From an uncultured delta proteobacterium (GTDB taxonomy: Bacteria; Desulfobacterota; Desulfobacteria; Desulfobacterales; Desulfosalsimonadaceae), in NCBI GenBank assembly GCA_963826785.1, contig CAWGYD010000006.1:544001-608000 (forward strand): DNA of 64,000 bases. The letters are read 5' to 3'. Of the stretch, positions 17,226 through 39,314 are shown in pieces. Both the position numbers and the translations under genes were made by a program. Every line of letters begins with the position of its first letter. Within the stretch, counting starts at the first letter, position 1. The notes under the pieces are model-generated. The model was not told where the DNA came from and did not search any database. It saw only the letters and a list, made by a program, of their open reading frames with translations.

Positions 17226-18536
17226 ATGAAAAAATGGATTCTGGTCATGATGGTTGCTTGTTTTCTGGGGACGCCCCTGTCGGCCGAGGAACTGTTTTCG
17301 GCGACGAAAGCGGGCGATTTGAGCGATATGACGCATTTGGGGGGTGCGCTGTACAGGGATCTGACGCTTTCCTTTAACGCAAATGAGGCCTGCATGACCT
17401 GCCATCATCCTTCCGCCGGGTTCGCGGATCAGGCAGACCGCATTGACCCGGTGAATCTGCCCGTTTCGGCAGGGTCGGTGGCGGGAATGTTCGGCGGGAG
17501 AAACGCGCCTTCATCGGCCTATGCCGGTTTTGCCCCTTGTTTTTATTATGATGCGGACGAAGGATTGTTTCTGGGCGGCGCCTTCTGGGATGGCCGGGCC
17601 ACGGGAAATCTTTCTCTGGGAGGCGCTCTTGCGGTTCATGATCCGCTGGCGGAACAGGCCATGGGACCGTTTTTAAATCCTGTGGAAATGGCTGTTCCGG
17701 ATGCGGAGATGCTGGTGGCGCTGGTCAAGAATTCAGCATATGCCGACCTTTTTCTCAAGGTTTTCGGACCGGAAGCCTTCGATGACACCCAACTGGCTTA
17801 TGAGTACATCGGGATCGCCATCGCGGATTTTGAGCATTCCCACTTTATTAACCGGTTTAGTTCCAAGTTCGACAAGTTTGTGGCCGAGCAGGGCGGGGAG
17901 GTCGATGATTTCGGAGTTGAGGTGGAGGACAGCGGATTTCGGAAATATGTCGGTCCGCCGAAAAAGTTTAAGTCCAAATACCTGACCTATGACGAGGCCG
18001 ACGGTCTGGCCCTGTTCAATGCCGATTCAGGCGTGCAGTTGGAAAATGACGGCAGCAGCGTGGGCGGCATGTGCTATCTGTGCCATCTGACGGAAAATGG
18101 TCCGGAGGCGAATGCGCCGCTGCTGACCGATTTTTCCTATGATAATCTTGGAATTCCCAAAAACGATAGAATCGAAGCGCTGGCCGGGTTTCAGGAGACG
18201 GATTACGGGCTGGGGGCCCGGGTGGAGCAGCTTGAAACCGCGTGTCCGGAATGTGCTTTCACCTACAATGAAAATGAGACGGTGATCGAGGAAGAAGCCG
18301 GCAAATTCAAGGTACCCACGCTTAGGAATGTCGAAAGATCAGCACCTTATGGACACAACGGCTATTTTCCGGACCTGCTTTCCATCGTTCATTTCTATAA
18401 TGTCAGAAATTCCATGACAGAAATAGCGGCCGAAGTTCCTTCCACCGTAAATGAGGAAGAACTCGGCAACCTGGGGCTCTCCCCGGACCAGGAGGCAAAA
18501 ATCGTACTGTTTTTGAAAACCCTGACCGACCGTTGA
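17226..18536 (+). CDS. Periplasmic di-heme cytochrome c peroxidase / MauG superfamily protein
   Basis: Signal peptide, CMTCH, RNAPS, FWDGRA, NPVEM, CYLCH and KFKVPTLRNV..APYGHNG. Confidence 0.9.
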   Translation: MKKWILVMMVACFLGTPLSAEELFSATKAGDLSDMTHLGGALYRDLTLSFNANEACMTCHHPSAGFADQADRIDPVNLPVSAGSVAGMFGGRNAPSSAYAGFAPCFYYDADEGLFLGGAFWDGRATGNLSLGGALAVHDPLAEQAMGPFLNPVEMAVPDAEMLVALVKNSAYADLFLKVFGPEAFDDTQLAYEYIGIAIADFEHSHFINRFSSKFDKFVAEQGGEVDDFGVEVEDSGFRKYVGPPKKFKSKYLTYDEADGLALFNADSGVQLENDGSSVGGMCYLCHLTENGPEANAPLLTDFSYDNLGIPKNDRIEALAGFQETDYGLGARVEQLETACPECAFTYNENETVIEEEAGKFKVPTLRNVERSAPYGHNGYFPDLLSIVHFYNVRNSMTEIAAEVPSTVNEEELGNLGLSPDQEAKIVLFLKTLTDR

Positions 18537-18594: not shown

Positions 18595-19263
18595 CTATTT
18601 CAAAGCGGTTTGGGATTTTTCCAGAGAGTTTAACACCACCTCCACGTGGGCGGAGGCGAACTGTCGGAATGTGTCTGCGGCGGCATCCGGGTCATTGCGG
18701 GCGATGCTCTCATACCCCTTGCGCAGGTGGCTGACCACTTTTTTGAGCTGGTCCGGCATGTAGGTGATGGACATCCACTGGACCCGCTCCGCGGTGGGCA
18801 TGAGTTCCAGGGCGATGCGTTCGATGATGGGATTTCCGGACATTCTCAGAACTTTGTGGGCCATCCGGGTGACGTTGATCAGGTAGAGATCAAAGTCGTT
18901 TTCATCGATGCTCTTTTCCAGGTTGGCCAGCTCCGTTTTCAGATCGGCGATGTCATCAGGAGTGGCGTTTCTGGCGGCATTGGCGAAGGCATATTGATAG
19001 AGTACAATAGCCGTGTCATAGAGGTGGCCGATCAGTTCAACGGAAAGCTCGGTCACCTGGTATCCTTTGGGCGTTTTATCCACCAGCCGGATCTGCTCGA
19101 GCCGCAAAAGCGCATCCCGGACCGGGCTTCGGCTGACGCCCAGGTCCTTGGAGACCTGGGATTCATGGATCGGTTCGCCGGATTTCAGTTCATTTCGGAT
19201 GATCTTTTTTCCGATAATCTCGATGATCTGATCCGACAAATTGTTTCGTGCCAGCGCTTCCAT
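18595..19263 (-). CDS. GntR family regulator (FCD C-terminal domain)
   Basis: Winged helix-turn-helix LGVSRSPVRDAL; 222 aa. Confidence 0.9.
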   Translation of the reverse strand: MEALARNNLSDQIIEIIGKKIIRNELKSGEPIHESQVSKDLGVSRSPVRDALLRLEQIRLVDKTPKGYQVTELSVELIGHLYDTAIVLYQYAFANAARNATPDDIADLKTELANLEKSIDENDFDLYLINVTRMAHKVLRMSGNPIIERIALELMPTAERVQWMSITYMPDQLKKVVSHLRKGYESIARNDPDAAADTFRQFASAHVEVVLNSLEKSQTALK

Positions 19264-19269
19264 TCGATG

Positions 19270-19512
19270 CTAACCCTCTTGCGGCTCAAGTGCTGACATG
19301 GAAACGGCCCCCGCGAGGCACTCCTTCTCACAGGCATGGCAGCCGATGCATTTTTCAGGTGCGGCTAAAAACGGGTATCGCCGAAATCCCCGGGTGCTGT
19401 TGGCAATGTGGAGGTCTAAAGCGCCGGTGGGGCAGATCTCGGTGCACATGGAACAGGCCCAGCAGAGTTCCCGGTCAAAAAGGGGGGTCGATATATTCTT
19501 TTTTGCCTTCAT
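19270..19512 (-). CDS. 2x[4Fe-4S] ferredoxin
   Basis: CWACSMCTEICP and CIGCHACEKEC. Confidence 0.88.
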   Translation of the reverse strand: MKAKKNISTPLFDRELCWACSMCTEICPTGALDLHIANSTRGFRRYPFLAAPEKCIGCHACEKECLAGAVSMSALEPQEG

Positions 19513-19560
19513 GTCGTTGCGATCCTTTTCGGACTTGAATATCGTATTTGTCTTTTGATT

Positions 19561-20310
19561 TCAGTTAAATGGTTTCCACACGGTTTGGGCCCGGGTGATG
19601 ATTTTTCCGGTGTTTTTACTGAAAAGCGCATGGGCAAACTGCGGGGCCGGATTTTCATGCACCTGTTGGGCCCGGGAGATGATCCGGTCCCCATAGAGGG
19701 ATTCACCGATATAGTGGATATCGATCTCGCAGGGCCTATATCCCCGGATGACGGCTTCGGGAACGGTTTCCAGCGCCCAGACGATATAAACCGAATTGTT
19801 CACGTGGGTATTGAAATCCAGATCATGCATCCGGATGTTGAAGATGCGCTCCGCATCGGTATTTGCCGGTTCGGGTATGGCAGCGAAATTATCTTCAACC
19901 GGACGCTGGCATCCGGACAGCATGGCCTCCGGCAGGCCCTTGCTGAGGCGGACCGGCTTTTTGCCTGCCAGACTGACGACGATCCAGCAGCTTCTGGCGG
20001 CAATCAACAGCTTTTCATGGTCATCGTAGATTTCAAATTCCCTGAGCTCATATAGATTTTTATGGGGATACCGCCAGGTGACGGCCCGGAGGGAATCGTT
20101 CCAGCCCGGATAATGGTGTAAGGCGATGTGGTATTTCACCACCACCCAGGCAAATCCGTTCCGGAAAAGATCATTCGATGATGCCCCCATGCGCCCGCAG
20201 TGCCGGCTCATGATATCCTGGAAGATGTTTAAGGCCGCCACCGGCTTGATCATCCCCCTGACTCCGGTATCGGCATAGCGCACCCGGATGTTCTGTTCAT
20301 ATAAATCCAT
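19561..20310 (-). CDS. Acyl-ACP/acyl-CoA thioesterase (double hotdog)
   Basis: VRYADT, P.WND...VTW and DLDFNTHVNNSVY.WALE. Confidence 0.88.
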   Translation of the reverse strand: MDLYEQNIRVRYADTGVRGMIKPVAALNIFQDIMSRHCGRMGASSNDLFRNGFAWVVVKYHIALHHYPGWNDSLRAVTWRYPHKNLYELREFEIYDDHEKLLIAARSCWIVVSLAGKKPVRLSKGLPEAMLSGCQRPVEDNFAAIPEPANTDAERIFNIRMHDLDFNTHVNNSVYIVWALETVPEAVIRGYRPCEIDIHYIGESLYGDRIISRAQQVHENPAPQFAHALFSKNTGKIITRAQTVWKPFN

Positions 20311-20345
20311 GAGATTATCAGTTCCCCCGCCGGGGCCGGGGGGTG

Positions 20346-22286
20346 TCACGGTTCCACTTTTTCCGCAGGTTTTCCGGTTTCCTTGTCCCATCCGAACTGC
20401 TGCCAGTAGTCGGCCACCATCTTGTCGATGTTGACTTGCCGGTTTTTGTTGGCGCCTTTTTCCATGGGGGGGTAGCCCAGGGCCCGGGGGTTGGGCCGGA
20501 TCGATTTCGGGTCGATGCCGTGTTTGATATTAAAGGCCTGCTTTAAGGTCTGGAGTCGTTTGCCCATTTCCATGTATTCGGCCGGAGTCTTGTCCCATCC
20601 GGCGGCCGCATTGATCCATTCGAACACCGGCATCCGGTCGGCCCCCAGAAAAGCCCCGAAGGCGCATCCGCCCGCGCCGTTTAACACATTGACGAAGTTG
20701 CTGCAGGCCGCGGCCATTTTGGCCTTCTTCTGTGTGGCGCGGTACTTGCCCGCCTTGCGGTACATCAGCCACGGCTTGGGCAGGGTCTTGTCCTTTTTCC
20801 ACAGCCTGTACATCTCATAATACATCTGGGAGCCGATGGTGTGGCGCCCCGGAGTGGGCTCCACGGAATAGTGGACGGCAAATCCGGGATCAAACCGGCT
20901 GTCGTGCATGGGCAGTTCCTGGCCGCCGGAATGGATGGCGTACTGGTGAGCCCCTTTGCCGATGCGCTCGGCGGCCTTTTTCACCCCGTCGGCCAGGATG
21001 TCGCCAATCCCGTCCCGGGCGACCATCTTTTCTATCAGGGCGATCATGGCGTCGGTGTTCCCCCAGGTCAGCTCCAGTCCATCCGCGTCGGCTTTGGTCA
21101 GGATGCCCTTTTCATAACATTCCATGGCAAAGGCGATGGCGGTTCCCGCCGAAATGGTGTCCATTCCGGCCCGGTTGAGCATGTCGTTCATGAGGAAAAT
21201 AGCATCGAGATCATCGTTTAACACGAGGCCGGACAGGGCCAGCACCGTCTCGTACTCGGGCTTGTGCCCTTCGCCGGAAGGGAATTTGCCCGTGCAGATG
21301 CCGCCGCACCCCAGGGGACATGAGTAGCAGTGATACTTTGCGATCTCCTTTTCCAGAAACAGGTCCGGGTTGATGGCATTGGACTTTTCCTTGGGAAAGT
21401 CAAGGTTGGAGCCGCCCCAGTTCTTGATGGGGGAGTCTCCCATTTCGGTGGCGTACTGGTTGATGGCCACGGTACCCCATTTGCGCAGCATGATCTTCCA
21501 CAGCATGCCGTCCACGGCCGTCTGCATGGGCAGAAACCGGAGCAGGGCCCCGACAATCCGCAGGCCCTTGCCGGACAGGAACCAGGGCTGAAACTGCACC
21601 CACTTGTTGCACGCCTGGGACAGGGATTTGACCGCTTCGGGGTTGCTGGCCTCAATCTTTTTGTTGCCGTCGAGGACCACCGCTTTTAACTTCTTGGACC
21701 CCATGACCGCACCCAGGCCCGAACGGGCGGCCATGCGGCCCATGTCATTGGAGACCCCGGAGATCAGGGACAGCTTCTCCCCGGCCGGACCGATGCAGGC
21801 CACCCTTGGTTTTCGCCTGTCCCTGAGTTCGGCAATGAGCATCTCCTCGGTCTCTAAAGCATCTTTTCCCCACACATGAGCGGCGTCTTTGAGTTCGGCC
21901 TTGTTGTTTTTAATGTGCAGATAAACCGGTTTGTCGCTTGCGCCGGTAAAAAAAATGCCGTCATACCCGCAGCGTTTGATGGCCGGAGAAAACGTGCCGC
22001 CGCAGTTGGCCTCGCCATAGCCCCCGGTCAAGGGCGATTTGCCCACCACCATCCACCGGCCGGTAAAGAGACTGCCCGTTCCGGTGAGCAGCCCCGACAC
22101 AAACCCCAGCATGTTGTCCGGCCCCAGGGGATCGGCCCCTTCCGGGATGTCGTTGTAGAGCATAAACCCGCCCAGGCCGGATCCGGCCAGAAACTTCTCA
22201 TAAACGGAATCGGGTATCTGCTGCTCCTCCATGGTGCCGTCGGTGAGATTGACTTTCAGGACCTTGCCCATGTATCCGTTTGGCAT
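20346..22286 (-). CDS. Aldehyde:ferredoxin oxidoreductase family (W/Mo)
   Basis: GYMGKVLKVNL, KSPLTGG, IGPAGE, GLGAVMGSKKLKA, CYSCPLGC, PEYET and GMDTIS. Confidence 0.93.
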   Translation of the reverse strand: MPNGYMGKVLKVNLTDGTMEEQQIPDSVYEKFLAGSGLGGFMLYNDIPEGADPLGPDNMLGFVSGLLTGTGSLFTGRWMVVGKSPLTGGYGEANCGGTFSPAIKRCGYDGIFFTGASDKPVYLHIKNNKAELKDAAHVWGKDALETEEMLIAELRDRRKPRVACIGPAGEKLSLISGVSNDMGRMAARSGLGAVMGSKKLKAVVLDGNKKIEASNPEAVKSLSQACNKWVQFQPWFLSGKGLRIVGALLRFLPMQTAVDGMLWKIMLRKWGTVAINQYATEMGDSPIKNWGGSNLDFPKEKSNAINPDLFLEKEIAKYHCYSCPLGCGGICTGKFPSGEGHKPEYETVLALSGLVLNDDLDAIFLMNDMLNRAGMDTISAGTAIAFAMECYEKGILTKADADGLELTWGNTDAMIALIEKMVARDGIGDILADGVKKAAERIGKGAHQYAIHSGGQELPMHDSRFDPGFAVHYSVEPTPGRHTIGSQMYYEMYRLWKKDKTLPKPWLMYRKAGKYRATQKKAKMAAACSNFVNVLNGAGGCAFGAFLGADRMPVFEWINAAAGWDKTPAEYMEMGKRLQTLKQAFNIKHGIDPKSIRPNPRALGYPPMEKGANKNRQVNIDKMVADYWQQFGWDKETGKPAEKVEP

Positions 22287-22501
22287 ACCGACCTCCTTTT
22301 TCTAAGGGGGAACTTATATTCAAATTCCCATGAAAACGCTTCTATTGAAATGAGCTGGAGTTTTTCCAGATCAGCGGGAAAAAAGAATCCGGTAAAGAAC
22401 CCCGGATTCAGTTCTATTTTTCAAAAACCCCCAATGACGGGAGGCAATTCTTTTTACGCGTTCATCCGTATGGGATAAAAAGTGTGCATTTCGTTCAGGC
22501 G

Positions 22502-23680
22502 CTACACCTTGACCCGGACCTCCGACGGCTTCAGCAGGGGAAGAAACACCGTGCGGGGTTTGGATGTCATCTCGATGTTGTTTTTGGGGCACTGATAGGC
22601 GCATTGGCCGCAGCCGATGCACTTGTCGGCGTTGAGCGTCATTATTTTATCCTCGATGGAAACGGCGGTGGTGGGACAGAACCGCTCGCACAGGCCGCAC
22701 CCCTTGCAGTTCGCATCATTTTTCACCCGGGCCAGAAAGTGGCTCTCGTATTTCAGCGACACGGCCCCCATGTTGTATGCTTTGAGAATGCCGCAGCAGT
22801 CCCAGCAGCAGTTGCAGATCGCGAGCACCGGCAGACGAATATCGTCGCGCTCGTGAATGACCGTGTGAACCGCCCCCTTGTCCCGCACCGCCCTGAGGAT
22901 GGAAAGCGCTTCTTCCTGGTCGATGCTCCGCCCGTAGCCGAAATCCACCCAGGCTTTTGCCATTTCCCCGAAGGCCATGCAGGAATCCTCGGGCATCTTG
23001 TGGCTGCAGGATTTATCCAAAACATCGGCCGCCCGGCGGCATACGCAGGGGAAAATGGAGATCGCGTTTTTGCCGCCAAATTCCCGGACCAGGTTGTCCA
23101 CGTAGGCAGTGGGGTATACCTTTGATTCGGGTGCCGACAAGGACGCATCGATGGGGATGATTTTCTTCTTTTTGCCTGTCGAAGCCAGGGCGGGACTGAG
23201 GATGCCCACTCCCTGAGCGGGTTTAAAGAAGGGCTTCATGGCCATATTCTGGAGGGGCCGCAGCGGCACAAAATTAAATCGGGCAAAAAACTGGAAGAAT
23301 TCTTCCCATTTTTTTGAAAAGGCTTTGATTTCGGGTTTGCCGACCAGATAATGCATCATGGCCTCGTACCACCCCACTGCGATGGCATTCAGCCGGTACT
23401 GGCCATTTCCGCCTGCATCGATATCCCGATGCAACAGGCCCTTGCGGTTCAGCGTATCAAAAAAAGCGTCAAATTCATCTGAGGCCATGCCGCTTTGTTT
23501 GGCCGCGGCTGCATAGGACAGGTGGCCGGTCCCCAGTTTCAACAGGTAGTCGAGTTCCCGGTCGGTCACCGACATGTCCATCATCTCCACCAGGGGCGTG
23601 GCCACCGGGATGAACCGCTCGTTCTGCTTGTTCATTCGAGAAAGCAGCGCTTTGATTTTCTTCTTGCGTGTATTTGTCAT
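22502..23680 (-). CDS. Multi-cysteine Fe-S protein with C-terminal 2x[4Fe-4S] domain
   Basis: CVCR, SCMAFG, CNCCWDCCG, CKGCGLCERFCP and CIGCGQCAYQCP. Confidence 0.85.
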   Translation of the reverse strand: MTNTRKKKIKALLSRMNKQNERFIPVATPLVEMMDMSVTDRELDYLLKLGTGHLSYAAAAKQSGMASDEFDAFFDTLNRKGLLHRDIDAGGNGQYRLNAIAVGWYEAMMHYLVGKPEIKAFSKKWEEFFQFFARFNFVPLRPLQNMAMKPFFKPAQGVGILSPALASTGKKKKIIPIDASLSAPESKVYPTAYVDNLVREFGGKNAISIFPCVCRRAADVLDKSCSHKMPEDSCMAFGEMAKAWVDFGYGRSIDQEEALSILRAVRDKGAVHTVIHERDDIRLPVLAICNCCWDCCGILKAYNMGAVSLKYESHFLARVKNDANCKGCGLCERFCPTTAVSIEDKIMTLNADKCIGCGQCAYQCPKNNIEMTSKPRTVFLPLLKPSEVRVKV

Positions 23681-23717
23681 GAGGGTCCTCCTGCATTTGC
23701 ACTAAGTGAACAGCTGC

Positions 23718-24503
23718 TTAATTTGAATAACCCGGCAAGCCGAATTGCGCAAGACACTTTCGAATGGAACCAAGCGCCGGCGGGTCTTTGATATCGAGCA
23801 GGCTGGTTCCGGCCATGTCCGCGCGCCGGACCACATCATCTTCCGGGATCCAGCCCAGGCAATCAAGTCCGGGGACCATGTCGATGCCGCCCATTTCAAC
23901 TTCATCCCGGACCCGGTTTACGATGAGTCCGGCTGCCTCGTAATCGATGGTGCCATCCGATACGTCCTTGATGGTCCTGGCCACATTCAGCCCCCGGGCC
24001 GAAGCGTCCGAGACCAGGAGAAGGTGGGTGACCTTTTCCATGACCCGGCGGTTGACCTGCTCGATGCCGGCTTCCCCGTCGATGACCACCACGTCGAAGT
24101 TGCCGGAGAGATCGGCGATAATATCCTTTAAAATGTGGTTCACCTGGCAGTAGCACCCTTCCTTTTCGGGGCGGCCGATGGCCAGGAAGGCCAGGTTGTC
24201 CCGTTCCTTCAACGCGGAGAACAGCTCGTAATCGAGACGCGAGAGGATCGTCTGCCGGTCGGCGGATTTACCCTCCTGCACCCGGGCGATGAGGTCGTTG
24301 CGGATGTCGTCCACCGTCTTGTGTACGCTAACCCCCAGGGCCGATGCCAGCCCCACGGCCGGATCCGCATCGATGGCCAGCACCCGGCGGTCGGGGTTTT
24401 CCAAAGCCAGCCGCACGATCAGGGCGCTCAGGGAAGTCTTTCCCACGCCTCCCTTGCCGCAGACGGCAATCACAATTGGCCGTTTATATTTCATTTTATC
24501 CAT
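23718..24503 (-). CDS. cooC: CooC/AcsF-type nickel-insertion ATPase
   Basis: Deviant Walker A GKGGVGKT, IDADP, EGCYC (CxC metal site) and DGEAGIEQVNRR. Confidence 0.85.
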   Translation of the reverse strand: MDKMKYKRPIVIAVCGKGGVGKTSLSALIVRLALENPDRRVLAIDADPAVGLASALGVSVHKTVDDIRNDLIARVQEGKSADRQTILSRLDYELFSALKERDNLAFLAIGRPEKEGCYCQVNHILKDIIADLSGNFDVVVIDGEAGIEQVNRRVMEKVTHLLLVSDASARGLNVARTIKDVSDGTIDYEAAGLIVNRVRDEVEMGGIDMVPGLDCLGWIPEDDVVRRADMAGTSLLDIKDPPALGSIRKCLAQFGLPGYSN

Positions 24504-24576
24504 AATTTATCGATTTATTCGCACTTGTGTACTTGTGAGGTGCCAGCGTTTATTTCAGCAGTCGTTTAGGGCGTGG

Positions 24577-24742
24577 CTGACGGGCGCGCAAACAGGGATC
24601 CGGCCGCTCAGTGATATTTTTGCCGGACGGGAACAGGTTTCGAGCGGAATCGTACTTTGCGATAATCGGCGAATTCCCGTTTGATTTCCGATGCAAAAAT
24701 CTCAAATTTCGCTTGCCGGACCCCTGTTTACGTACCCGTCAG
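24577..24742. repeat. Long imperfect intergenic inverted repeat
   Basis: 28-bp arms at 24577-24604 and 24715-24742 match at 24 of 28 positions, with further nested inner stems. Confidence 0.75.
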
Positions 24743-24808
24743 GAGATTGGGCGCTGAAATTTCGTTCATGAGCATTTTGCAGGAACTTAAAGCAATAAGC
24801 AAACCGCA

Positions 24809-25540
24809 TCAATTCCCTTTTCCCTTCATTGCGCGATGCACCGCCCGCAGATCCGCAACATCCTCGCATATGGCATTGTACTCGCATTCGTCGCAGTCGA
24901 AGGTGAGGTCATCGGCCATTTTGTTCATGGCGCCGATGATGCTCGATACGCCGGAGGCGATCTGCTGCAGTTTGATCACATCGTCTTTGCCCGAAGTGAC
25001 GAAAAGCACTTCCGCGGCATGGACATAGTCGAGATTTAAAAATTGATCGATCAGGCCCCCGCCCAGGGTTTGGAACGAAAATCCACCAAAAAGCGCTTCT
25101 TTGCTCACCCGGCTCCATTCCCGGCCGTACTGGGAGACCGCCCGCATCATGTAGCCCTTCAGGTGAAGGTCGTAGCGTAAAAGCTCCATCTCCCGGTACC
25201 GGTCATAGCTGTTGTCCGCGTCAAAACCGGTGCCGCCCAGCAGGACCACCTTGCCGAAAGATGCCTGCCGGCCCGAAAGCGCCGCAAGATCAGGGCCGAT
25301 GAGGGTGATCCGGCCGTGCTTGATTTTTTCCGGGTCGTTGATCCAGATGAGAAAGGAGGCGGAGGCGTCTTTTGGATTTCCCAGTTCCACGGCGGTATCC
25401 TGGGCCATCACCAGGTTCCGGTTTCTGTCCGTGGGCCATGATATCTGTCCCCGGTGGACATGTTCGGAAAAATCCGCCCGGCCGCGGTTCGTATCCATGA
25501 AAGCCCGGATGTACTCAATTTGCTGTTCAAATAGTTCCAT
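24809..25540 (-). CDS. Stand-alone protein resembling the middle domain of acetyl-CoA synthase (AcsB/CdhC), with C-terminal CxxC-x4-C
   Basis: DTAVELG, GRITLIGPDL, EWSRVSKEA..GF and EVLFVT follow the order of ACS middle-domain motifs; ends in CDECEYNAIC. Confidence 0.7.
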   Translation of the reverse strand: MELFEQQIEYIRAFMDTNRGRADFSEHVHRGQISWPTDRNRNLVMAQDTAVELGNPKDASASFLIWINDPEKIKHGRITLIGPDLAALSGRQASFGKVVLLGGTGFDADNSYDRYREMELLRYDLHLKGYMMRAVSQYGREWSRVSKEALFGGFSFQTLGGGLIDQFLNLDYVHAAEVLFVTSGKDDVIKLQQIASGVSSIIGAMNKMADDLTFDCDECEYNAICEDVADLRAVHRAMKGKGN

Positions 25541-25545
25541 TCAGC

Positions 25546-26946
25546 CTACAGCAGCCCCCTTACCTGGAAGAACTCGTCCAGCCGGTCTTTCGTGGCTTCC
25601 CAGGATTCCACCCGGTCGTCAAAGGCATCGTCGTACATGATATGCACCGGAAAATTTTGTTTTTCGATCTCCCTGGCAAAGGGCTTGACCATCCCCCAGG
25701 TGTTGCGGCAGCCCGGGGTGCCGTTGTAGATCACGCAGTCCGCCTGGTAGAGCCTCGCGCAGGCGAGCGTCTCTTCCAGCCACTGGCCGTGCCGGTCATA
25801 GGGGCCCCGGATGGAGCGGACCATGGGCATCCGGGCGTTCATCTGGGCAATGGAATCCAGCATGGCCTCCGGAGAGGAGGTGTCGATGTCATAGGTGTTG
25901 TCCGGCAGGTCTTTGCTGTATTTGTTCCCCGCCCGGAAATTGCGGGTCAGGATGGAGCCGGTGTGGGCGATGCCCCGGGCTTCCAGGTAGTGATAGAAGT
26001 TCATGTCCACGGTGTAGTGATCGATATAGCACATGACCAGGCGCAGCTTCTCCTCTCCGCAGGAAAGCCCGGGCACGCCTCCGGCGATTCTGCGGCGGGC
26101 GGTATCCACCATCACTTCCAGCAGCTCGGTGTACTCCGGGTCCCCGGAAAAGCAGAACCGGCCCGCATAGATCATCAGTGAAAAGATGGGCGGGATGGGG
26201 GTGGGGACCAGCATGAGCATGTCCTCCATCTCCGCGGTCAGGGCATCCTGCTTCCCGATCTCGGCCAGAATCTTCGCCAGCCGGTCATAATCGAGTTTTT
26301 TGCCGGAATGCTTCTCAATGAAATCGATCATGGTCTTGTAGTCGTCGATGTGATACTGCTGGGAGCGCTCATCGCCGATGGTGCTGGGGTAGTTGAGCTG
26401 GTAAAAGGGCTTATCCAGGTATGTGGCGGCAAAGGCGAACGCGTTGGCGTTGGTGTCGCACACCCCGGGAGTGTCGCAGATGACAAAATCGATTTTTTCG
26501 CACAGCCCCGCCAGGTAAGCCCCCAGAAAGCCGCGCTGGGAAGAGCAGGAGGTTTCCGGCATCCCCACCTCCACGCAGAAATCCATGTAGTCGAACATCC
26601 CCCGCTTCCATACCATGGAGCCGATGGCGGTCAACACCTCAAAGGTGGCCGGCACGATGTCCATGGCATAGAGGATGGCCGGGGTGCTGCAGAAGGTGGT
26701 GGCGGCAATCGGCTTCCCCTGGGCTCTGGCGGTAAGGATGTTCTCGTAGTATTTTCCCAAAAGTTTTAGAAAGCGGATGCCCGGCGGACCGGCTTCGATG
26801 AAGGACCGGACCACGTCGCTGTAGTTGGGGATATACCGGTATGTGTTCTCGATTTCCTTGGATGTCCCGGCCGGCAGCAGGGCTGCGGTGGCCAAGGTCC
26901 TCCCCATCACCCAGTCGTAGGGGTATTCTTTGATTTCGGGTCTCAT
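25546..26946 (-). CDS. 2-hydroxyacyl-CoA dehydratase / benzoyl-CoA reductase (HgdB/BcrB) family subunit, paralog 2
   Basis: FCS.P, PETSCSSQ, GVCD, FIEKHSGKKLDYD and PGCR...D.FDDR. Confidence 0.85.
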   Translation of the reverse strand: MRPEIKEYPYDWVMGRTLATAALLPAGTSKEIENTYRYIPNYSDVVRSFIEAGPPGIRFLKLLGKYYENILTARAQGKPIAATTFCSTPAILYAMDIVPATFEVLTAIGSMVWKRGMFDYMDFCVEVGMPETSCSSQRGFLGAYLAGLCEKIDFVICDTPGVCDTNANAFAFAATYLDKPFYQLNYPSTIGDERSQQYHIDDYKTMIDFIEKHSGKKLDYDRLAKILAEIGKQDALTAEMEDMLMLVPTPIPPIFSLMIYAGRFCFSGDPEYTELLEVMVDTARRRIAGGVPGLSCGEEKLRLVMCYIDHYTVDMNFYHYLEARGIAHTGSILTRNFRAGNKYSKDLPDNTYDIDTSSPEAMLDSIAQMNARMPMVRSIRGPYDRHGQWLEETLACARLYQADCVIYNGTPGCRNTWGMVKPFAREIEKQNFPVHIMYDDAFDDRVESWEATKDRLDEFFQVRGLL

Positions 26947-26991
26947 TTTCCGCTTACTCCGTAAATGTTAATCGCCATGCTGTGGAAGTTC

Positions 26992-27774
26992 TTACCGCTT
27001 TGCCTTCTCCCGCGCATACAGCGCCGCGCCCAGCGCGCCCATGATCTGGGGATCGGCGCCGTTTAATGATTTCATGTGGATTTCAAGAGTTTCGCCCAGG
27101 GCGGCAAATACCCCCTGGTTTTTGGCCACTCCGCCGGTCATGACCACGTCGTGGGCCATATCGATGCTTTTGGCCAGAGAGGCCACCCGCCGGGCCAGGG
27201 CGTGGTGCAGGGCGTTGATGATGTCCGCGGTCTCCTTCCCTTCGTTGACCAGCGAGATCACCTCGGTTTCCGCAAAAATCACGCACTGGTTGGAAATGGA
27301 AAGCCTTTCCGTGGACTGGGCCCCGATTTCGCCCATCTTGTCCAGGGGAATTTCCAGGGCTTCGGCCATGACCTCTAAAAAGCGTCCGGTGCCCGAGGCG
27401 CATTTGTCGTTGTAGATGTATCGGGCCACCTTGCCGCTGTCGTCCAGCCGGGTCGCCTTGGCATCCTGGCCGCCGATGTCGATGATCATGCGTACAGAGG
27501 GCATGAGGTGAAAGGCGCCCTTGGCGTGGCAGGAGATTTCCGATTCCACGCTGTCCACGAAAGGGATCTGCTCACGGCCGTAGCCCGTGCCCACCATGCA
27601 TTGAATGTCTTCCATGGACAGGCCCGCCTTTTGGAGGGCCGCCCCCATCACCTCTATGGCAGATTCGGCCGGCCGCGTCCGGGCCCGCATCACCGCATCG
27701 GCGACAATTTTATCCCCCTCCAGGATGACCGCCTTGGCCGTCAGGGACCCGATATCACATCCTGCGACAATCAT
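26992..27774 (-). CDS. ATP-dependent CoA-substrate-specific enzyme activase (HgdC/BcrAD family)
   Basis: GCDIGS.TAK, TGYGR, EISCH, IDIGGQDAK, NDKCASGTGRF and QCVIFAE. Confidence 0.92.
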   Translation of the reverse strand: MIVAGCDIGSLTAKAVILEGDKIVADAVMRARTRPAESAIEVMGAALQKAGLSMEDIQCMVGTGYGREQIPFVDSVESEISCHAKGAFHLMPSVRMIIDIGGQDAKATRLDDSGKVARYIYNDKCASGTGRFLEVMAEALEIPLDKMGEIGAQSTERLSISNQCVIFAETEVISLVNEGKETADIINALHHALARRVASLAKSIDMAHDVVMTGGVAKNQGVFAALGETLEIHMKSLNGADPQIMGALGAALYAREKAKR

Positions 27775-27869
27775 TTAGTTTTCTCCTGTGTGCTTTTTTA
27801 AAATTCACAATTCACTATGGACAACCTCTTTAAAGCCCCCGCTCTCAAATGAATCGTGCATGGTCAATT

Positions 27870-28670
27870 TTATGAAGCTTTCCGCTGCCCGTTGACCTTC
27901 TCCCAGGATAGAAGCGCCGCGCCAATGGCGCCGGCGATCTGGGGGTCGGCCTTGCGGGTCTTTTTGATGGTTTTGCCCAGAAGCTTCTCCAGCGTGGAAA
28001 CCACCCCGATGTTCTTGGCCACGCCGCCGGACATGAAGATGTCGCCTTCGGGTTTTACCGCATTGACCAGGATGGCCACCCGGGCGGCCATGGCCGTGTT
28101 GATCCCCGCGCCGATGTCCTCGAGGGGCACCCCGGAATTGATGTACTTGATCACATCCGCCTGGGCCCACACCGTGCAGGTGGAGGCCAGGGTAATGGGG
28201 TTTTTGGCCGAAAGGGAGAGTTTGCCCAGCTCCTCCATGCTCACACCGAGGACCTTGGCCATGACCTCCAGAAACCGCCCCGTTCCCGAAGCGCACTTGT
28301 CGTTGGCCATGAATTTGACCACGTTGCCGTCTTCATCGATGCGCATGGTCTTGCAGTCCTGGCCGCCGATGTCGATGACCGTCTTGGCCGACGGCATCAG
28401 CCAGCGGGCGCCTCTGCCGTGGCAGGAGATTTCAGACACCGATTCATCCACAAACCCGATCCGGTCCCGGCCGTAGCCGGTGCCGATGCAGTATTTGATT
28501 TCGTCCCTGCCGATTCCGGCTTTTTCCAGCACCGCGGCCATGACCGCATCCGCAGAGTCCCCGGGCCGGGGTTTGGATTTGATGATGGCGCTGGCCACAA
28601 TCCGGTTGTTTTTCATGATCACGGCTTTTGAGGTCAGTGATCCGACATCGCAGCCTAAAACGTAATTCAT
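27870..28670 (-). CDS. ATP-dependent CoA-substrate-specific enzyme activase (HgdC/BcrAD family)
   Basis: GCDVGS, TGYGR, IDIGGQDCK, NDKCASGTGRF and TCTVWAQ. Confidence 0.92.
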   Translation of the reverse strand: MNYVLGCDVGSLTSKAVIMKNNRIVASAIIKSKPRPGDSADAVMAAVLEKAGIGRDEIKYCIGTGYGRDRIGFVDESVSEISCHGRGARWLMPSAKTVIDIGGQDCKTMRIDEDGNVVKFMANDKCASGTGRFLEVMAKVLGVSMEELGKLSLSAKNPITLASTCTVWAQADVIKYINSGVPLEDIGAGINTAMAARVAILVNAVKPEGDIFMSGGVAKNIGVVSTLEKLLGKTIKKTRKADPQIAGAIGAALLSWEKVNGQRKAS

Positions 28671-30067
28671 AACAGCCCCCTTACGTGAAAGAATTCATCC
28701 AGGCGGTCTTTGGTGGCATCCCATGACTCCACCCGGTCGTCGAATGCATCGTCGTACATGATGTGGGTGGGAAACCCGTTTTTCTCCATGTCCCTGGCAA
28801 AGGGCTTGACCATCCCCCAGGTGTTGCGGCATCCCGGCGTGCCGTTGTAGATCACGCAGTCGGCCTGGGTGAGTTTCGCCAGGGCCAGGGATTCCTCCAG
28901 CCACATACCTTTGCGATCGTAGGGGCCGCGGATGGAGCGGACCATGGGGAGCCGCGCGTTCATCTGGGCGATGGAGTCGAGCATGGCCTCCGGGGTGGAG
29001 ATGTCGATCCCGTAGGATGAACCCTCCATGCCCTTGACATATTCGTTGTTATCCGCAAAATTGCGGGTCAGGATGGAGCCGGTGTGCCCGATGCCCCGCT
29101 CCTCCAGGTAATTCCAGAACTTGAGATCCACCGTGTAGTGATCGATATAGCACATGAATACGCGCAGCTTTTCCTCCCCGGATGTCAGGCCGGAAAGCCC
29201 TGTCCTTGCCTTTTCCCGTGTGGCCGAAACCATGGTCTCAAGCAGGTCCGTGAATACTTTCTGGCCGGAGAACAGGAAACGGCCGGCATACAGCGCCAGG
29301 TTGTAGATGGGGGGAAAGGGGATGGGAACCAGAAGCTGCATGTCCTCCAGTTCGGAAATCAGCGCATCCTGCCTGTTCACCTCCCCAAGGGCTTCGGCCA
29401 GGCGGTCGTAGTCCAGCTTCCGCCCCGAATGTTCCTCGATGAAGGCGACCATGGCCTTGTAGTCGTCGATGTGATACTTCTGTGACCGGTCATCGCCGAT
29501 GGCGCTGGGGTAGTTGAGCTGGAAAAAGGGGATGTGCAGGTATTCCGAGGCAAAGGAAAAGGCGTTGGCATTGGTGTCGCACACGCCGGGGGTATCGCAG
29601 ATGACCATATCGATCTTTTCAGTCAGCCCGGAAAGGATCGCCCCCAGGGCGCCCCGCTGGGAAGAGCAGGAGGTCTCGGGCATGCCCGCTTCCACGCAGA
29701 AATCGAAATAATCGAACATGCCCCGTTTCCATATCAGCTGGGCCAGGCCCGTCCATATTTCGAAGGTGACCGGTACCAGGTCCATGGCATACAGGATCAC
29801 CGGCGAGTTGCAGAAGGTGGTGCCCACGATCTTTTTCCCCTTCGATCGGGCATTCAGCACGTTCTCGTAATAGAGTGCCAGCAGATTGAAGAGCTTGATC
29901 CCCACTTCCCCGGCATTGAAAATGGTACCGGCGCTATCCTTGTAAGCCGGGATATAGCGCAGGACCAGTTCGGTCTCCCTGGCGGTGCCCAGCGGCACCC
30001 GGGAAGCCGCCGAAAGCGTCTTTCCCATCAGCCAGTCGTAATTGTATTCGGTCATCTCGGGCCGCAT
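28667..30067 (-). CDS. HgdB/BcrB family subunit, paralog 1
   Basis: Start MRPEMTEY chosen by alignment to the paralog's MRPEIKEY; same Cys motifs and same length (466 aa). Confidence 0.85.
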   Translation of the reverse strand: MRPEMTEYNYDWLMGKTLSAASRVPLGTARETELVLRYIPAYKDSAGTIFNAGEVGIKLFNLLALYYENVLNARSKGKKIVGTTFCNSPVILYAMDLVPVTFEIWTGLAQLIWKRGMFDYFDFCVEAGMPETSCSSQRGALGAILSGLTEKIDMVICDTPGVCDTNANAFSFASEYLHIPFFQLNYPSAIGDDRSQKYHIDDYKAMVAFIEEHSGRKLDYDRLAEALGEVNRQDALISELEDMQLLVPIPFPPIYNLALYAGRFLFSGQKVFTDLLETMVSATREKARTGLSGLTSGEEKLRVFMCYIDHYTVDLKFWNYLEERGIGHTGSILTRNFADNNEYVKGMEGSSYGIDISTPEAMLDSIAQMNARLPMVRSIRGPYDRKGMWLEESLALAKLTQADCVIYNGTPGCRNTWGMVKPFARDMEKNGFPTHIMYDDAFDDRVESWDATKDRLDEFFHVRGLL

Positions 30068-30116
30068 ATGTTTGATCCTATTTGCTTTTGCGGGTTTAGG
30101 GGTTTCGTTCCGGCGA

Positions 30117-30396
30117 AACACCCCCCTGACCCCCCTCAAGGGGGGAATCTACAGGTGTTAATCCCCCTCAAGGGGAAACACCCCCCTAACCCCCCTCAAG
30201 GGGGGACTGTGAAAAGGGGGACTGTGAAAAACGGATTCCCCCCTTAGAGGGATGGCCATTATGCTTGTGGATTCCCCCCTTGAGGGGGGCGAAGGGGGGT
30301 GTTCCCACGCCGGTCACCACATCCATCTTTAAATCCATACACAAGGGGGAATCCACAATCGTAATAATCCCCCCTTGAGGGGGGTTGGGGGGTGTT
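30117..30396. repeat. Cluster of REP-like palindromic repeats
   Basis: Full copies at about 30117-30148, 30177-30206, 30271-30303 and 30366-30396 (two in each orientation), partial copies at 30161 and 30235, and a tandem GGGGGACTGTGAAAA x2. Confidence 0.85.
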
Positions 30397-31561
30397 CAAC
30401 CCGCTTTTTTCTGCTTCTCCCGGCCGGTCATCCGCTCCAGGAAGGCGTTGATCCGAAGCTTCATCCGGCCCGCGTCGATATGGGGGCCGTATTCGCGCTC
30501 CACCCGCAGGCAGGGGATGCCCATTTCCTCCAGGTCCCGCTCGAACAGCGCGTTTTCCGCGCCGTGCAGGTCGCAGAAGCGGATGTTCTGCATGATCACC
30601 CCGTCGGCCTTGGACCGGACGATCCGCTCCTTTAAGAAGGCTCAGCCGTTCCTTGTATTTGCCGAACATGCGGGGGCAGACCGACGACCCCAGGTAATGC
30701 TCGGCCAGAGCCGCAACCGGATCGCCGTCTTCGGCAATCTCTGTGCCCTCGTAGCGGATGCCGAAGCACAGGTTCTCCCCCACCACCAGGGCTTTTTCCG
30801 TGTTTTCGATCAGCTCGAACAGGTCGATCTCGTCGCTGACGCTCCCCACCACCAAAATCGCGCTTTTTGCCTGCGTTTAACGCTTTTTTCCGGCGTTTCA
30901 GGTTGGTGATCCAGGCTTTGAGTTCCCTGGTGTATTCGTCTCTGGGCATCACCGTGCCGGCCACGGTGGCGGCAAAGGCATCGGTGCCCGTGACCACCAC
31001 ATCATCCTGGGCCCGAAGGTCCTCCAGTTCCCGGAGCAGCCGGCGCCCCTGGTTGAATTCGGAAATGGCGGCGCTGAGCTTGTCAGGGGTGATGGAAACC
31101 TTGAAGTGGTCCTCCACGCTTTTGATCAGAAGCTTGATTTCCTCGATGTACCAGTCCATGCCGTGGGCTTCGGCCTTGTGGGGAACGTCGAAGTAATAGA
31201 AGTAATCGGGGACGATCCCTTCGTAGTCCTCGCCCGCTTTTCGCCAGCATTCATCCAGCCGCCGCATGCCGTCGCACCCCGGGGTGATGATGGCCCCGTC
31301 CAGAAAGGAAAACTTGCCTTTGCCCGCCAGCTGCAGGATGCACTTGGGAAAGGTGCAGATAAACGGCCCGAAATAGGTGTCCCCCACCTCGGTCCCCTCG
31401 GTTTCGATCCCCCGCAGGCGCACCGGCAGGATGTTTGCGGCATAAAAGATCTCACCCGGGGTGTAGGAGCAGGTATAGCCCACCACAGGCTTCCCTGACT
31501 GCTTCCAGGCCATAATGGACTGGCTGTTGACCTTTGTGGCCGCATCATAGAAGATATCCAT
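30396..31561 (-). CDS. HgdB/BcrC family Fe-S subunit, broken by two +1 indels (~30860, ~30642)
   Basis: Three frames join into GYTCSY, FICTFPK, GCDGMRR, GENLCFG, VCPRMF, KADGVIMQNIRFCDLHG and LRINAFLE. Confidence 0.85.
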
Positions 31562-31564
31562 CGC

Positions 31565-33025
31565 CTACACCTCCTGTTGGTTGAACAGTTCGCCCAGGGA
31601 CTGTCGGGCCGCCTGTGCATCGTCTTCATATTCGTCGTCTGCGGGTTTCAGGACCTGCACGATCCAGTTGACCAGTCCCGGCACCACGGCCCGGGCCGCA
31701 GGGGATGGCTGCGCCTGGCTGAAAATTTTGCGTGAAGCTTCGGCAAGCTCGTAATCGTCTATGGCCGACAGAAACTGGCCGATAAATCCGGAAATGGATT
31801 CGGGCTGCGCATCTCCCACCCGGTTGAACAGCCGCAGGGTCTGGTTGACCACCTCGGCCGCCTCCTGAACGTCATAGGCGTTAAGACTTCGCGATACCGA
31901 CCCGGCGGCCTCGGCGTCATCCAGTGCCTCCCAGAAGGAAAGCCGGCGGTTTACGGTTTTGACCCGGATGTTGGTGATTTCCGGCCCCTTGATCAGGGCG
32001 AGCTGCTTAAAGGCGGGACGGCTGTTCACCGCCTCGGCCATGGCCCGGTCGATGGATGCGCCGGTCTCGGCCAGGGCCATTTTGGCCTTCCACAGGGTGA
32101 TGGGGTCGACATTCTGGGCGATTTCATCGATCTTGGCAGAGAGCAGCTGGGGCATCTTCGGTACCCCGGGTTCGCCCAGAAGGGCCGATCCGGTGTGGAT
32201 TTTTCGGGCCAATTCGGTGAGTTGGTTGAATAATCCGGCGGCGGGGCGCGCGTCGATTTCTCTTATAAAGGAGAGGATAACGTCGGTTAAGAGATCCGGG
32301 GGCATCTCGTTTAGTTTTTCAAGGGAGATGTCCAGGGCGTCGGTGGCCATGTTGACCACCGAGGGGATAAGCGACAGCAGCAGGACCACCTTGGCCGGGT
32401 ACTGCCACATCACCTGGTTGGCCATTTTCACCAGTGCGCTGGCGTCTTTGGCCGAGTGGTCCACCATTTCCTTTAATTCCCCGAAATCGATGGTCTCGAT
32501 CCAGTTTTTAAAGCCCGGCGCAAGCGTCCGTGCAAAAAACTCGGGGTCATCCTTGTGGATATCGTTTAATATCCGGCATCCCCGGGTGATCAGGGTCCCG
32601 GTCTGACCGGTGGCCAACCGGGCCGCCAAATCGCCAAACAGTTCCTTTTTTTCCCCGGTCTCCATCTGTTCAATGGTTTGGGCGGCGGTGTTGACCAGGT
32701 CGAACAGCCCATTGACCAACTCCGGCAGGGGGCCGGTGATGTCGCGGATGAAGTGCCCGTCTTTAAAAAGGTACTGAAGCTCCGGATTTTCAAGCACGTC
32801 ATCGGGGCGGGAGAGGCTCTTTTCGAGATACCTGCCCACCATCTTCAAAATGAATTTCTTGATTTTCTTGTCCCCGGCCACCACGGCCAGGACATCGGGC
32901 AAAACGGCGGCCAGGCTCTGCCGGATTTCCCGGGTGGCAAGGAGCCGGGCGATGGCCGTATTCGTTTCTGTTTCCGAGACCCGCTCGATGCCCGGCGGCA
33001 ATTCTGTGGGATGGATGGATTTCAT
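31565..33025 (-). CDS. Hypothetical alpha-helical protein (~486 aa)
   Basis: Long ORF with a GAGGGA RBS, packed into the operon; no motif recognised. Confidence 0.75.
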   Translation of the reverse strand: MKSIHPTELPPGIERVSETETNTAIARLLATREIRQSLAAVLPDVLAVVAGDKKIKKFILKMVGRYLEKSLSRPDDVLENPELQYLFKDGHFIRDITGPLPELVNGLFDLVNTAAQTIEQMETGEKKELFGDLAARLATGQTGTLITRGCRILNDIHKDDPEFFARTLAPGFKNWIETIDFGELKEMVDHSAKDASALVKMANQVMWQYPAKVVLLLSLIPSVVNMATDALDISLEKLNEMPPDLLTDVILSFIREIDARPAAGLFNQLTELARKIHTGSALLGEPGVPKMPQLLSAKIDEIAQNVDPITLWKAKMALAETGASIDRAMAEAVNSRPAFKQLALIKGPEITNIRVKTVNRRLSFWEALDDAEAAGSVSRSLNAYDVQEAAEVVNQTLRLFNRVGDAQPESISGFIGQFLSAIDDYELAEASRKIFSQAQPSPAARAVVPGLVNWIVQVLKPADDEYEDDAQAARQSLGELFNQQEV

Positions 33026-33068
33026 GATAGTTCCCTCTTTTAAGGAAAAATATTTCTTTTGCGTTCTT

Positions 33069-34448
33069 CTAAAGCGCCGCGGCCGCTTTGGGCATCTCCG
33101 GGGAGAGTCGATGTGCGGCATCGTTTATCTCGGGCTTTTTCCCGGCCTGATCCAGCTGATCCAGGGCCAGCAGATGTTTGGATAATCGGCGGCCCAGAGA
33201 CAATATGGTGGCGGTGGGCGGCAAGCCCCATTCCTGGGGGATGACCGAGGCATCGCACACATAGAGGTTGTCGAATTTCGTTTTAAGATCCGTATCCACG
33301 TGCTCGCCGATCTTGACCGTCCCGCCGGGGTGGGCGGCAAACATCCAGCCCCGGTAAATATCCGTGGCGCCGGCATGGGCAAGAATCCGCCGGGCGTGGT
33401 CGGCCCCCTTGTTCAGCTTTGCCTTGTCTTCTTTCGTCACGGATTTGGCCACCCATCCGTTTTTCGTGATCCGGCCGCCCAGGTCGTCTCTGATCTTGAT
33501 CATGATGGGAAGCACGTTTCTGTAGGCAAAGGCCTGTTTGATCTTGAACACCTCCAGGTCAAACAGGATCTTCATGAGATGCGGCATGTTGAAGTCGGTC
33601 ATGACGATGCCGTCATCGGCAAAATGGACCCCGGCGCTCATGGGGACGGCCCTGCCGTTGCCCAGCCCCCTGATCTTCCCGTAAACAAAGATCAGCGGAT
33701 CATAGAAGAAATCGTATCCCGTACCCTGCATGCCGGATTTGCGCAGGATCAAGGGAGATCCGATGCCGCCGGCGGCGATGATCGTCTTCGGCGCATAGGC
33801 CCGGTATTTTTCCTTGCCGCGGGTGTATTCGACCCCGACGGCGGCCTTGTTTTCGATGATCACCTTTTCCACCCGGGCATGGTTGATCATGGTGGCGCCG
33901 CTTCCCAGTGCATCGTCGATGAAATGCCGGGCGTTCCACTTGGCCCCGTAGGGGCATCCGTAGCTGCAGAGCTGGCATTTCACCCGGCATTTGTCCTGGT
34001 AGATGAACTTGTTGAGTTTGTGGGCGTCATATCCCAGGTCCTGTGCGCTTTCCAGAAATCGCCGCGGCCCCGCGGCCATCAGTTCATCGGCCAGAGGCGC
34101 CATGGGGATTTGATTCTTCATTTCCGAGGCTTCGGCCGAGACGTCCACGCCGTAGGTGTTGAGCATTTCCACCGGGGGATCAAAGGCGGTGCCGCAGTAA
34201 ATCAGGGAGCTGCCGCCGGTAGTGATGGCGCGGATCATCCCCAGCATTTGATTGGTGATCAACAGGCTTTTTCCGGGGATAAACGCCTGGGGCAGGACCT
34301 GGGTGAACTTGCCCCGGATGGGGTCGTTGTCCCCCCATTCCAGGATCAGCACTTTTTTGCCGTTTGCGGACAGGTCCTTTGCCACGGTGGCGCCGCCGGG
34401 GCCGCTGCCCACCACGATGGCGTCAAATTCGGTATTGGGGGATTTCAT
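33069..34448 (-). CDS. GMC family FAD oxidoreductase
   Basis: IVVGSGPGG...LEWG, CxxC(x2)CxxGC, AAGGIGSP, HPGGT and YVCDAS. Confidence 0.9.
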   Translation of the reverse strand: MKSPNTEFDAIVVGSGPGGATVAKDLSANGKKVLILEWGDNDPIRGKFTQVLPQAFIPGKSLLITNQMLGMIRAITTGGSSLIYCGTAFDPPVEMLNTYGVDVSAEASEMKNQIPMAPLADELMAAGPRRFLESAQDLGYDAHKLNKFIYQDKCRVKCQLCSYGCPYGAKWNARHFIDDALGSGATMINHARVEKVIIENKAAVGVEYTRGKEKYRAYAPKTIIAAGGIGSPLILRKSGMQGTGYDFFYDPLIFVYGKIRGLGNGRAVPMSAGVHFADDGIVMTDFNMPHLMKILFDLEVFKIKQAFAYRNVLPIMIKIRDDLGGRITKNGWVAKSVTKEDKAKLNKGADHARRILAHAGATDIYRGWMFAAHPGGTVKIGEHVDTDLKTKFDNLYVCDASVIPQEWGLPPTATILSLGRRLSKHLLALDQLDQAGKKPEINDAAHRLSPEMPKAAAAL

Positions 34449-34593
34449 GGCATGTGCCTCCTCATGGATGTGTGGATCGGATGAAATGAAAAACCTTCAG
34501 CAGGCGTTATCCCGCCCGGGTATTTTTGTTCGCACTCGCTCAACCGCTTTGGGAAAATCGTAACCATGATGCGCACCGTGAACAATGTTTGGA

Positions 34594-34617
34594 ATGTCGA
34601 CTGTCGACCGTCGACAT
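34594..34617. promoter_or_regulatory. Candidate GntR operator (GTCGAC x3)
   Basis: ATGTCGACTGTCGACCGTCGACAT is near-palindromic and lies just downstream of the -10 box. Confidence 0.65.
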
Positions 34618-34619
34618 GA

Positions 34620-34648
34620 ATACTAATTTTTAAAATATCCGGTGTCAA
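34620..34648 (-). promoter_or_regulatory. Sigma70 promoter for the minus-strand operon
   Basis: TTGACA-N17-TAGTAT on the minus strand. Confidence 0.75.
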
Positions 34649-39302: not shown

Positions 39303-39314
39303 TTCACTCTTCCT

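Follow-up and report, generated by a model that had tools for sequence, protein, structure and literature searches.

The described systems closest to the gene cluster considered here are the Bzd-type class I benzoyl-CoA reductase (BCR) of Aromatoleum sp. CIB (BzdNOPQ; PDB 8S02; PMC11971306), the 2-hydroxyacyl-CoA dehydratases (HadBC/HadI, PDB 3O3M and 4EHT; HgdAB/C) and the double-cubane protein DCCP (PDB 6ENO and 7YYL; PMC7317905). According to excerpts of the published accounts, to which all citations here refer, class I reductases are heterotetramers (PMC11971306), in the Bzd type composed of two catalytic-module and two ATPase subunits, with BzdN carrying a double cubane on Cys36/73/100/263/293/327 and BzdO a three-cysteine cluster together with Glu65 and His131 (PMC11971306). 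A tyrosine two residues past the first cluster cysteine of BzdO binds the thioester oxygen, while the dehydratases are described as having lost both double-cubane clusters (PMC11971306) and their activators as homodimers (PMC11574389).

A 64,000-nucleotide stretch from an uncultured delta proteobacterium of the family Desulfosalsimonadaceae (assembly GCA_963826785.1, contig CAWGYD010000006.1, positions 544,001 to 608,000; hereafter the window) contains 14 co-oriented genes, which were confirmed among the open reading frames (ORFs) of the window, all on the minus strand and all in the order that a first-pass annotation had given, from a GMC-family gene to gntR. The conserved core is smaller than this 14-gene run and consists of a helical orphan protein, one BzdN-like B subunit, a catalytic A subunit (duplicated here), two activases, a truncated acetyl-CoA synthase (mini-ACS) and a CooC-type ATPase. 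Profile scores and alignments indicate that the core is a real, conserved and uncharacterised subfamily of the benzoyl-CoA-reductase/dehydratase family (HGD-D), which would work like a Bzd-type reductase and lies outside that family. We consider it an even call that the core encodes a reductase that spends ATP to transfer two electrons to a hydrophobic, non-benzoyl CoA thioester of fatty or cyclic type, likely in an inducible catabolic route. The double-cubane signature, the operator, the frameshifts and the duplication of A described below were absent from the first-pass annotation, and no description of this cluster, subfamily or operator, or of its cultured host as a carrier, was found in the literature searched.

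Synteny across relatives, which had been suggested as a check, was found in named loci, in metagenome loci and in genomes of the same family; these sets overlap and are kin, and their counts are not independent. Searching with A2 yielded 31 named loci at 60-79% identity, of which all but a few come from Desulfobacterota metagenome-assembled genomes. Counted over the loci that extend far enough to show the gene in question, the orphan stands before B in 27/27, the mini-ACS follows the activases in 18/18, CooC follows the mini-ACS in 23/23, and the GMC gene leads, upstream of the orphan, in 18/20. Only a single copy of A is present in 19 of the 22 named loci that span B to mini-ACS, which rules out three distinct subunits. 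With the orphan as anchor, the best 80 of 93 metagenome loci have B next after it in 69/69 and the mini-ACS following in 21/24 by script (22 after inspection of L200), while the gene upstream of the orphan, read in 67 loci, is GMC in 42, an acyl-CoA-dehydrogenase-like pair in 16 and something else in 9. Thus the gene set first listed is conserved in its core, but the aldehyde:ferredoxin oxidoreductase (AOR), thioesterase and ferredoxin genes form a variable tail, and GMC is replaced in another lineage. The first-pass reading is partly supported, its alcohol/aldehyde/acyl-CoA pathway as a single linear route being no more than possible. When 401 genomes were sampled evenly across the phylum, 13 had A (E < 1e-100); the orphan was present in all of these and in one more, and a close mini-ACS in 11 of the 13. 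In the family of the window, A is found in 35/58 genomes and 13/13 genera. A cultured carrier is Desulfosudis oleivorans DSM 6200, whose proteins ABW68571-75 and ABW68577-78 fall in the 90% clusters of the orphan, B, A, both activases, B' and A', with five core genes consecutive; ABW68576, expected to be its mini-ACS, was not seen among the 90% cluster members, and the literature searched did not name these accessions.

Membership of known families was judged by hidden Markov model cut-offs (NCBIfam) and PDB alignments, and every subunit falls short of the Bcr, Bzd, Had and DCCP model cut-offs. The scores (given as score/cut-off in bits) are 144/454 for the BzdN and 163/421 for the BcrC model with the intact relative L001, 26/449 for BzdO, 28/487 for BcrB, 186/380 for BzdQ, 42/750 for HadB and 137/700 for HadC, while the DCCP model NF040772 gives 184/350 for intact B and 39/350 for A. 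All of these lie far below cut-off, and the earlier placement of the subunits outside characterised enzymes was borne out. In contrast to Bzd-type BCR, the enzyme occurs in strict-anaerobe hosts and travels with the helical orphan, the mini-ACS and CooC.

Three genes had initially been read as HgdB-type; all belong to HGD-D, but they are not equivalent, as one is a BzdN/HadC-like B and the other two are copies of the catalytic A. The profile of B (31561-30396, minus strand) scores 195 bits with BzdN, 187 with HadC and 167 with MbdN. Six cysteines of B match the BzdN ligands one to one in the alignment and are kept in 21 intact aligned relatives as well as in the pieces of the window's B, while HadC and MbdN lack several of them. 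Since B keeps the six cysteines that the dehydratases lost, the architecture is reductase-like, and B is predicted to hold a double-cubane [8Fe-9S] cluster. DCCP shares the six-cysteine motif with B, but it has one subunit type, whereas the cluster has two different subunits.

In the window, the B gene is split over three reading frames by two single-base insertions, which lie near 30860 and 30633. These insertions were called by DNA alignment, 4/4 relatives aligned are without the extra bases, and B is a single intact ORF of 377-410 aa in the 21 relatives aligned. Each of the three pieces shares 77-88% identity with close relatives, on par with the intact neighbouring genes. Isocitrate lyase, a second GMC gene, a potassium transporter and, on contig C11, an activase are frameshifted as well, a sign that the assembly is prone to indels. 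Among public sequencing runs, none of RNA was listed for this DNA, and the contigs of the one run with a small share covered neither B frameshift. The two insertions are probably assembly errors. The alternative is that the cluster is a recent pseudo-operon here, with real insertions and a dead enzyme, whatever the relatives do. The fact that a single gene has both insertions and that one of these lies away from any clear homopolymer, together with a repeat cluster directly after the B gene, speaks for such decay, but the relative-like identity of the pieces, the frameshifts elsewhere and an intact promoter and operator speak against it, and we regard it as rather unlikely. The repeat cluster itself (30112-30395, no strand assigned) is a REP-like palindromic element found genome-wide and lies outside the system; its pattern has 235 matches in the genome, dense on parts of contigs C3, C5 and C8 and absent from C7 and C11.

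The catalytic copies A1 (30067-28667) and A2 (26946-25546), both on the minus strand, are 466-aa paralogues with 68% identity. In a tree made in a quick version only, the duplication is shared with L004, L012 and L161, and separate duplications are seen in G040 and G322. Invariant residues of A (A2 numbering) are C134, C163, C413, E103, C86, N166, D309 and H310: the three cluster cysteines and Glu103, a set that A has in common with the O-type subunit of Bzd-type BCR, are kept in 118/118 full-length relatives, and so are C86, D309 and H310. Glu103 aligns with HadB Glu55, and Cys86 falls in the loop of HadB Ser37, one residue off in the alignment; Ser37 is presumably the residue that takes the beta proton. 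The BzdO His131 position is Asn166 in 118/118, Asp309-His310 sits where BzdO has Pro-Pro, and Cys86 is extra with respect to BzdO. These alignments indicate that A has its own active site, marked by Cys86 and Asp309-His310. According to the alignment in PMC11971306, the machine-read text of which is partly scrambled, His131 occurs only in the Bzd and Thn types and not in Bcr or Mbr, so that its absence from A is compatible with a reductase. The best single-sequence PDB match of A is DCCP (E 8e-11), from which A differs in having no cysteine at two distal double-cubane positions; by eye, Cys86 stands in the same T-F-C motif as the distal-subcluster ligand of DCCP and B. Two distant family members that retain mini-ACS and CooC are without Cys86.

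Two different, adjacent activases, 47% identical to each other, are present in nearly every locus; in the window these are activase 1 (28670-27870), of the BcrAD/BadFG ATPase family, and activase 2 (27774-26992), both on the minus strand. The NDKC motif is found in 71/71 activases and the second cysteine motif was matched in 60/71. In number they resemble the ATPase pair of class I reductases, although each of the two could instead form homodimers. Here a second enzymatic reading has to be weighed, namely a radical 2-hydroxyacyl-CoA dehydratase that converts long-chain or branched 2-hydroxy fatty acids to enoyl-CoA for beta-oxidation, with the double cubane kept as an ancestral electron store. 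The cluster shares with the dehydratases the fold family, the catalytic glutamate aligned with HadB Glu55 and a similar activase, activase 1 being nearest to HadI; B scores nearly as high with HadC (187 bits) as with BzdN (195 bits), and databases label these proteins dehydratases. On the other hand, B has the six cluster cysteines lost by characterised dehydratases, the activases are of two different kinds, the family scores stay at 42/750 (HadB) and 137/700 (HadC), and no CoA-transferase was seen in the loci annotated. We judge a dehydratase to be somewhat improbable, at about one chance in four.

The four-subunit plan and the double cubane, as in the Bzd and Thn types, could also belong to a dearomatising reductase of substituted, polycyclic or heteroaromatic aryl-CoA, for which GMC and AOR would oxidise an aryl alcohol and aldehyde upstream, and Asn166 is compatible with ring reduction since Bcr- and Mbr-type enzymes likewise are without His131. 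Against this stand the BzdO and BcrB scores given above, the fact that the annotated neighbour families include no hydratase or hydrolase for ring opening, and the distribution of Oah, which was found in 0/58 genomes of the family, including that of the window (88% complete), and in 0/5 distant carriers, hence we consider a dearomatising enzyme improbable. The positive control of the Oah search gave a match in 1/5 genomes, G288, itself a carrier. As Oah is absent from the family genomes and the search works, benzoyl-CoA is unlikely as the general substrate, in line with the first-pass view that a benzoyl-CoA route is not the context. The canonical partners had been reported missing as well, and no dch/had/oah or CoA-transferase genes are annotated among the window ORFs scanned; an acyl-CoA synthetase gene lies at 15048-16799, on the strand opposite to the cluster.

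Several features point indirectly to a hydrophobic acyl substrate, namely the thioesterase, the dehydrogenase-like pair, AOR, the repeated duplication of A and the amphipathic orphan. D. oleivorans is an alkane degrader with later pathway steps unresolved (PMC3653055), and this alkane-degrading cultured carrier is counted toward such a substrate. With respect to alkane activation in the host of the window, the genome has five glycyl-radical enzyme genes; the one of these that was scanned, of 837 aa, scored below the cut-off of every named family, and a scan for DMSO-reductase type II likewise gave no gene above cut-off. The scanned glycyl-radical enzyme is encoded with an activase at L278:2961-5474 (G000:C6), and a molybdoenzyme frame of 1277 aa, of nitrate-reductase size, lies at G000:C1:521700-525300.

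The mini-ACS (25540-24809, minus strand; CdhC-like, 243 aa) corresponds to the middle domain of acetyl-CoA synthase, with a TM of 0.6-0.65 to AcsB/CdhC (PDB 7ZKJ, 1OAO). In contrast to AcsB/CdhC, it is without the N-terminal domain and the nickel-binding C-terminal domain with its four cubane cysteines. It carries C216-x2-C219-x5-C225 and thus three cysteines only; in an alignment with the full-length ACS that the genome also encodes, the C-x2-C matches the first two cubane ligands, and the aligned part ends at residue 531/744, before the nickel domain. Three cysteines are present in the C-termini of 105/126 full-length representatives and four in 18/126. That the mini-ACS is the cell's ACS is ruled out by the separate full-length ACS. 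The following gene (24503-23718, minus strand) encodes a CooC-like ATPase (best PDB match CooC 3KJE, E 2.4e-14), which has a deviant Walker A and shares the P-loop and CxC motif with CooC/AcsF ATPases, the CxC being present in 27/27.

Among 19 of 40 listed places fetched as other mini-ACS loci, 18 hold dehydratase/reductase-type or activase genes, mostly of other subfamilies, 7 hold CooC, and all 12 separate B-type subunits keep the six cysteines. The survey indicates that the mini-ACS/CooC pair tracks double-cubane enzymes in general, which fits assembly or recharging of the cluster better than a nickel site in A, and the pair likely helps to build or recharge the metal cluster of the enzyme. 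Such help is not always needed, since BzdNO assembled its double cubane in E. coli (PMC11971306). A nickel site would mean that A holds a second metal beside its cubane through Cys86, Asp309 and His310, loaded by CooC through the mini-ACS, for a different chemistry. The invariance of these three residues in 118/118 close relatives, the position of Cys86 in the T-F-C motif (by eye), and a CooC that keeps its CxC and follows the mini-ACS in 23/23 named loci are consistent with this, but 0/17 A-type subunits from other mini-ACS-linked sets have the Asp-His pair and the Cys86 register is lost there, so that Cys86/Asp-His as a general reason for CooC is unsupported. Further points against it are the two distant members that have the pair of genes without Cys86, the two carriers without a close mini-ACS, and the scarcity of CooC at other mini-ACS loci. 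We therefore think it very unlikely that the pocket of the lost sub-cluster contains nickel or another metal, fed by the double cubane for an undescribed C-O cleavage or carbon-adding step; if true, such a step could be one of the unresolved D. oleivorans steps in lipid or alkane breakdown.

The orphan (33025-31565, minus strand; 486 aa, all-helical) has no Pfam or NCBIfam match. It is built of repeated amphipathic modules (model pLDDT 78), and its fold search gave a best Z of 5.8 to generic helices and Atlas matches below 0.9, all unnamed. In the lineage with the acyl-CoA-dehydrogenase-like pair, the pair comes with two small helical proteins, which are paralogues of the repeat of the orphan (probability 97%); the pair itself, at L208:6891-9427 and kin, is divergent, and its second member has Met-Gly-Gly for the catalytic Glu-Gly-Thr. 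The accessory GMC-family flavoprotein (34448-33069, minus strand) shares with its relatives a C-x3-C-x2-C-x3-CP motif (16/16) that is possibly an Fe-S site. After CooC follows an Fe-S protein of 392 aa with a C-terminal 2x[4Fe-4S] domain (23680-22502, minus strand), which shares only 22-30% identity with the Fe-S gene found in relatives. The variable tail, all on the minus strand, consists of an AOR-family gene (22286-20346), an acyl-ACP-type thioesterase (20391-19561, likely start near 20310), a 2x[4Fe-4S] ferredoxin (19512-19270) and a GntR/FCD regulator (19263-18595). In a survey of 18 regions, many cut by contig ends, this tail is complete in 3 (L261, L262, L266) and partial in others. It is often preceded by a second B'-A'-activase set; in many relatives (L001:16096-19594, L174:16705-20233 and kin) a B'-A' set with a single activase comes after the core, and B' keeps the six cysteines. 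At L005:11411-14888 and in L010, gntR is followed by SDR, TetR and two TPP enzymes, one of them a sulfoacetaldehyde acetyltransferase; TPP enzymes were rejected as pathway members, as they occur in only 2/31 named loci and one is that acetyltransferase. Upstream of the cluster in L174 (3299-8562) lie two large, secreted-looking, repeat-rich paralogues of 786 and 895 aa.

The cluster had been placed behind one strong promoter. The sigma-70-type site TTGACA-17-TAGTAT (34648-34620, minus strand) is by itself at chance level, with 7 sites in the scan against 8.9 expected, but its TTGAC is conserved upstream of the operator in 17/17 contexts printed. The candidate operator is a self-complementary (GTCGACN)3 site (34596-34615, no strand assigned) that follows the -10 box immediately; it has no second copy in the 4.43 Mb genome and was found 0 times in 100 shuffles. 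With one mismatch allowed, it is present as a single copy in 18/34 genomes of the same family and in 3/316 others, while a reversed-site control matched in 6 listed genomes, none of them in the family. In 16/18 the site precedes the GMC gene, with the other two near contig ends; one site outside the family precedes a GntR gene, and TetR-type loci have none (0/8). Hence (GTCGACN)3 is likely the operator of the cluster's GntR, which we infer to bind it and which probably represses the cluster. As the operator occurs once per genome, a wider regulon from which the substrate might be read was ruled out. L258 (G409:C2) has tandem 7-bp GTCGAC-like arrays at several places (17 matches), unlike the single operator. 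A single transcript of the cluster would have to span 16 kb with internal gaps of 328, 305 and 215 nt.

Under the preferred reading of a reductase for a hydrophobic CoA thioester, ferredoxin would reduce a [4Fe-4S] cluster bridging the two activases, and ATP hydrolysis would drive electrons singly into the double cubane of B, which would store them and pass them on to the three-cysteine [4Fe-4S] cluster of A. Glu103 of A may then protonate the thioester radical, and Cys86 and Asp309-His310 may quench it, so that the outcome would be net reduction rather than dehydration, either as loss of an alpha oxygen substituent or as saturation of a conjugated bond. GMC and AOR could feed the route from alcohol to acid, with AOR also supplying reduced ferredoxin, the helical orphan might serve to handle the lipid-like substrate or as a scaffold for the complex, a metal cluster would be assembled or recharged by mini-ACS and CooC, and GntR would repress the operon until the substrate is present.

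Several observations weigh against the reductase reading. The position of the thioester-binding BzdO Tyr97 (136 in A) is Ser in 103/118 and Ala in 15/118, so that the CoA-ester substrate is itself inferred. The matches of A to DCCP, HadB and BzdO are all weak, with BzdO slightly behind the other two, and in the PDB activase 1 comes closest to the dehydratase activator HadI (225 bits, against 208 bits for MbdQ). No CoA ligase or transferase is a regular member, a ligase being found inside the cluster in 1/31 named loci. The carrier G288 encodes Oah, the carrier genomes G040 and G366 are those without a close mini-ACS, and B is frameshifted in the genome of the window.

Around the cluster, a di-haem cytochrome c peroxidase-like gene (17226-18536, plus strand) converges on gntR, and a YajD-family HNH gene (34758-35147, plus strand) is divergent from the cluster promoter. 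The second GMC gene (35156-36517, minus strand) is 66% identical to the first and has a short out-of-frame stretch between two compensating frameshifts. It is followed by a helical protein of 358 aa (36762-37838, plus strand) without family match, with a 43% paralogue on contig C1, and by the glyoxylate bypass genes for malate synthase, isocitrate lyase and AceK (38154-42885), the lyase being frameshifted near its end.

In the excerpts cited, DCCP, of unknown function, and BzdN are the only solved double-cubane structures (PMC7317905, PMC11971306), and the range of reactions supported by a double cubane is called an open question (PMC7317905). The cluster adds to these a well-bounded subfamily, apparently with its own active site, that is common in one anaerobic Desulfobacterota family without Oah, where a strict anaerobe would spend ATP per electron on a so far unnamed reaction. 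The conserved operator and the cultured host make both the substrate and the role of mini-ACS and CooC open to direct experiment.

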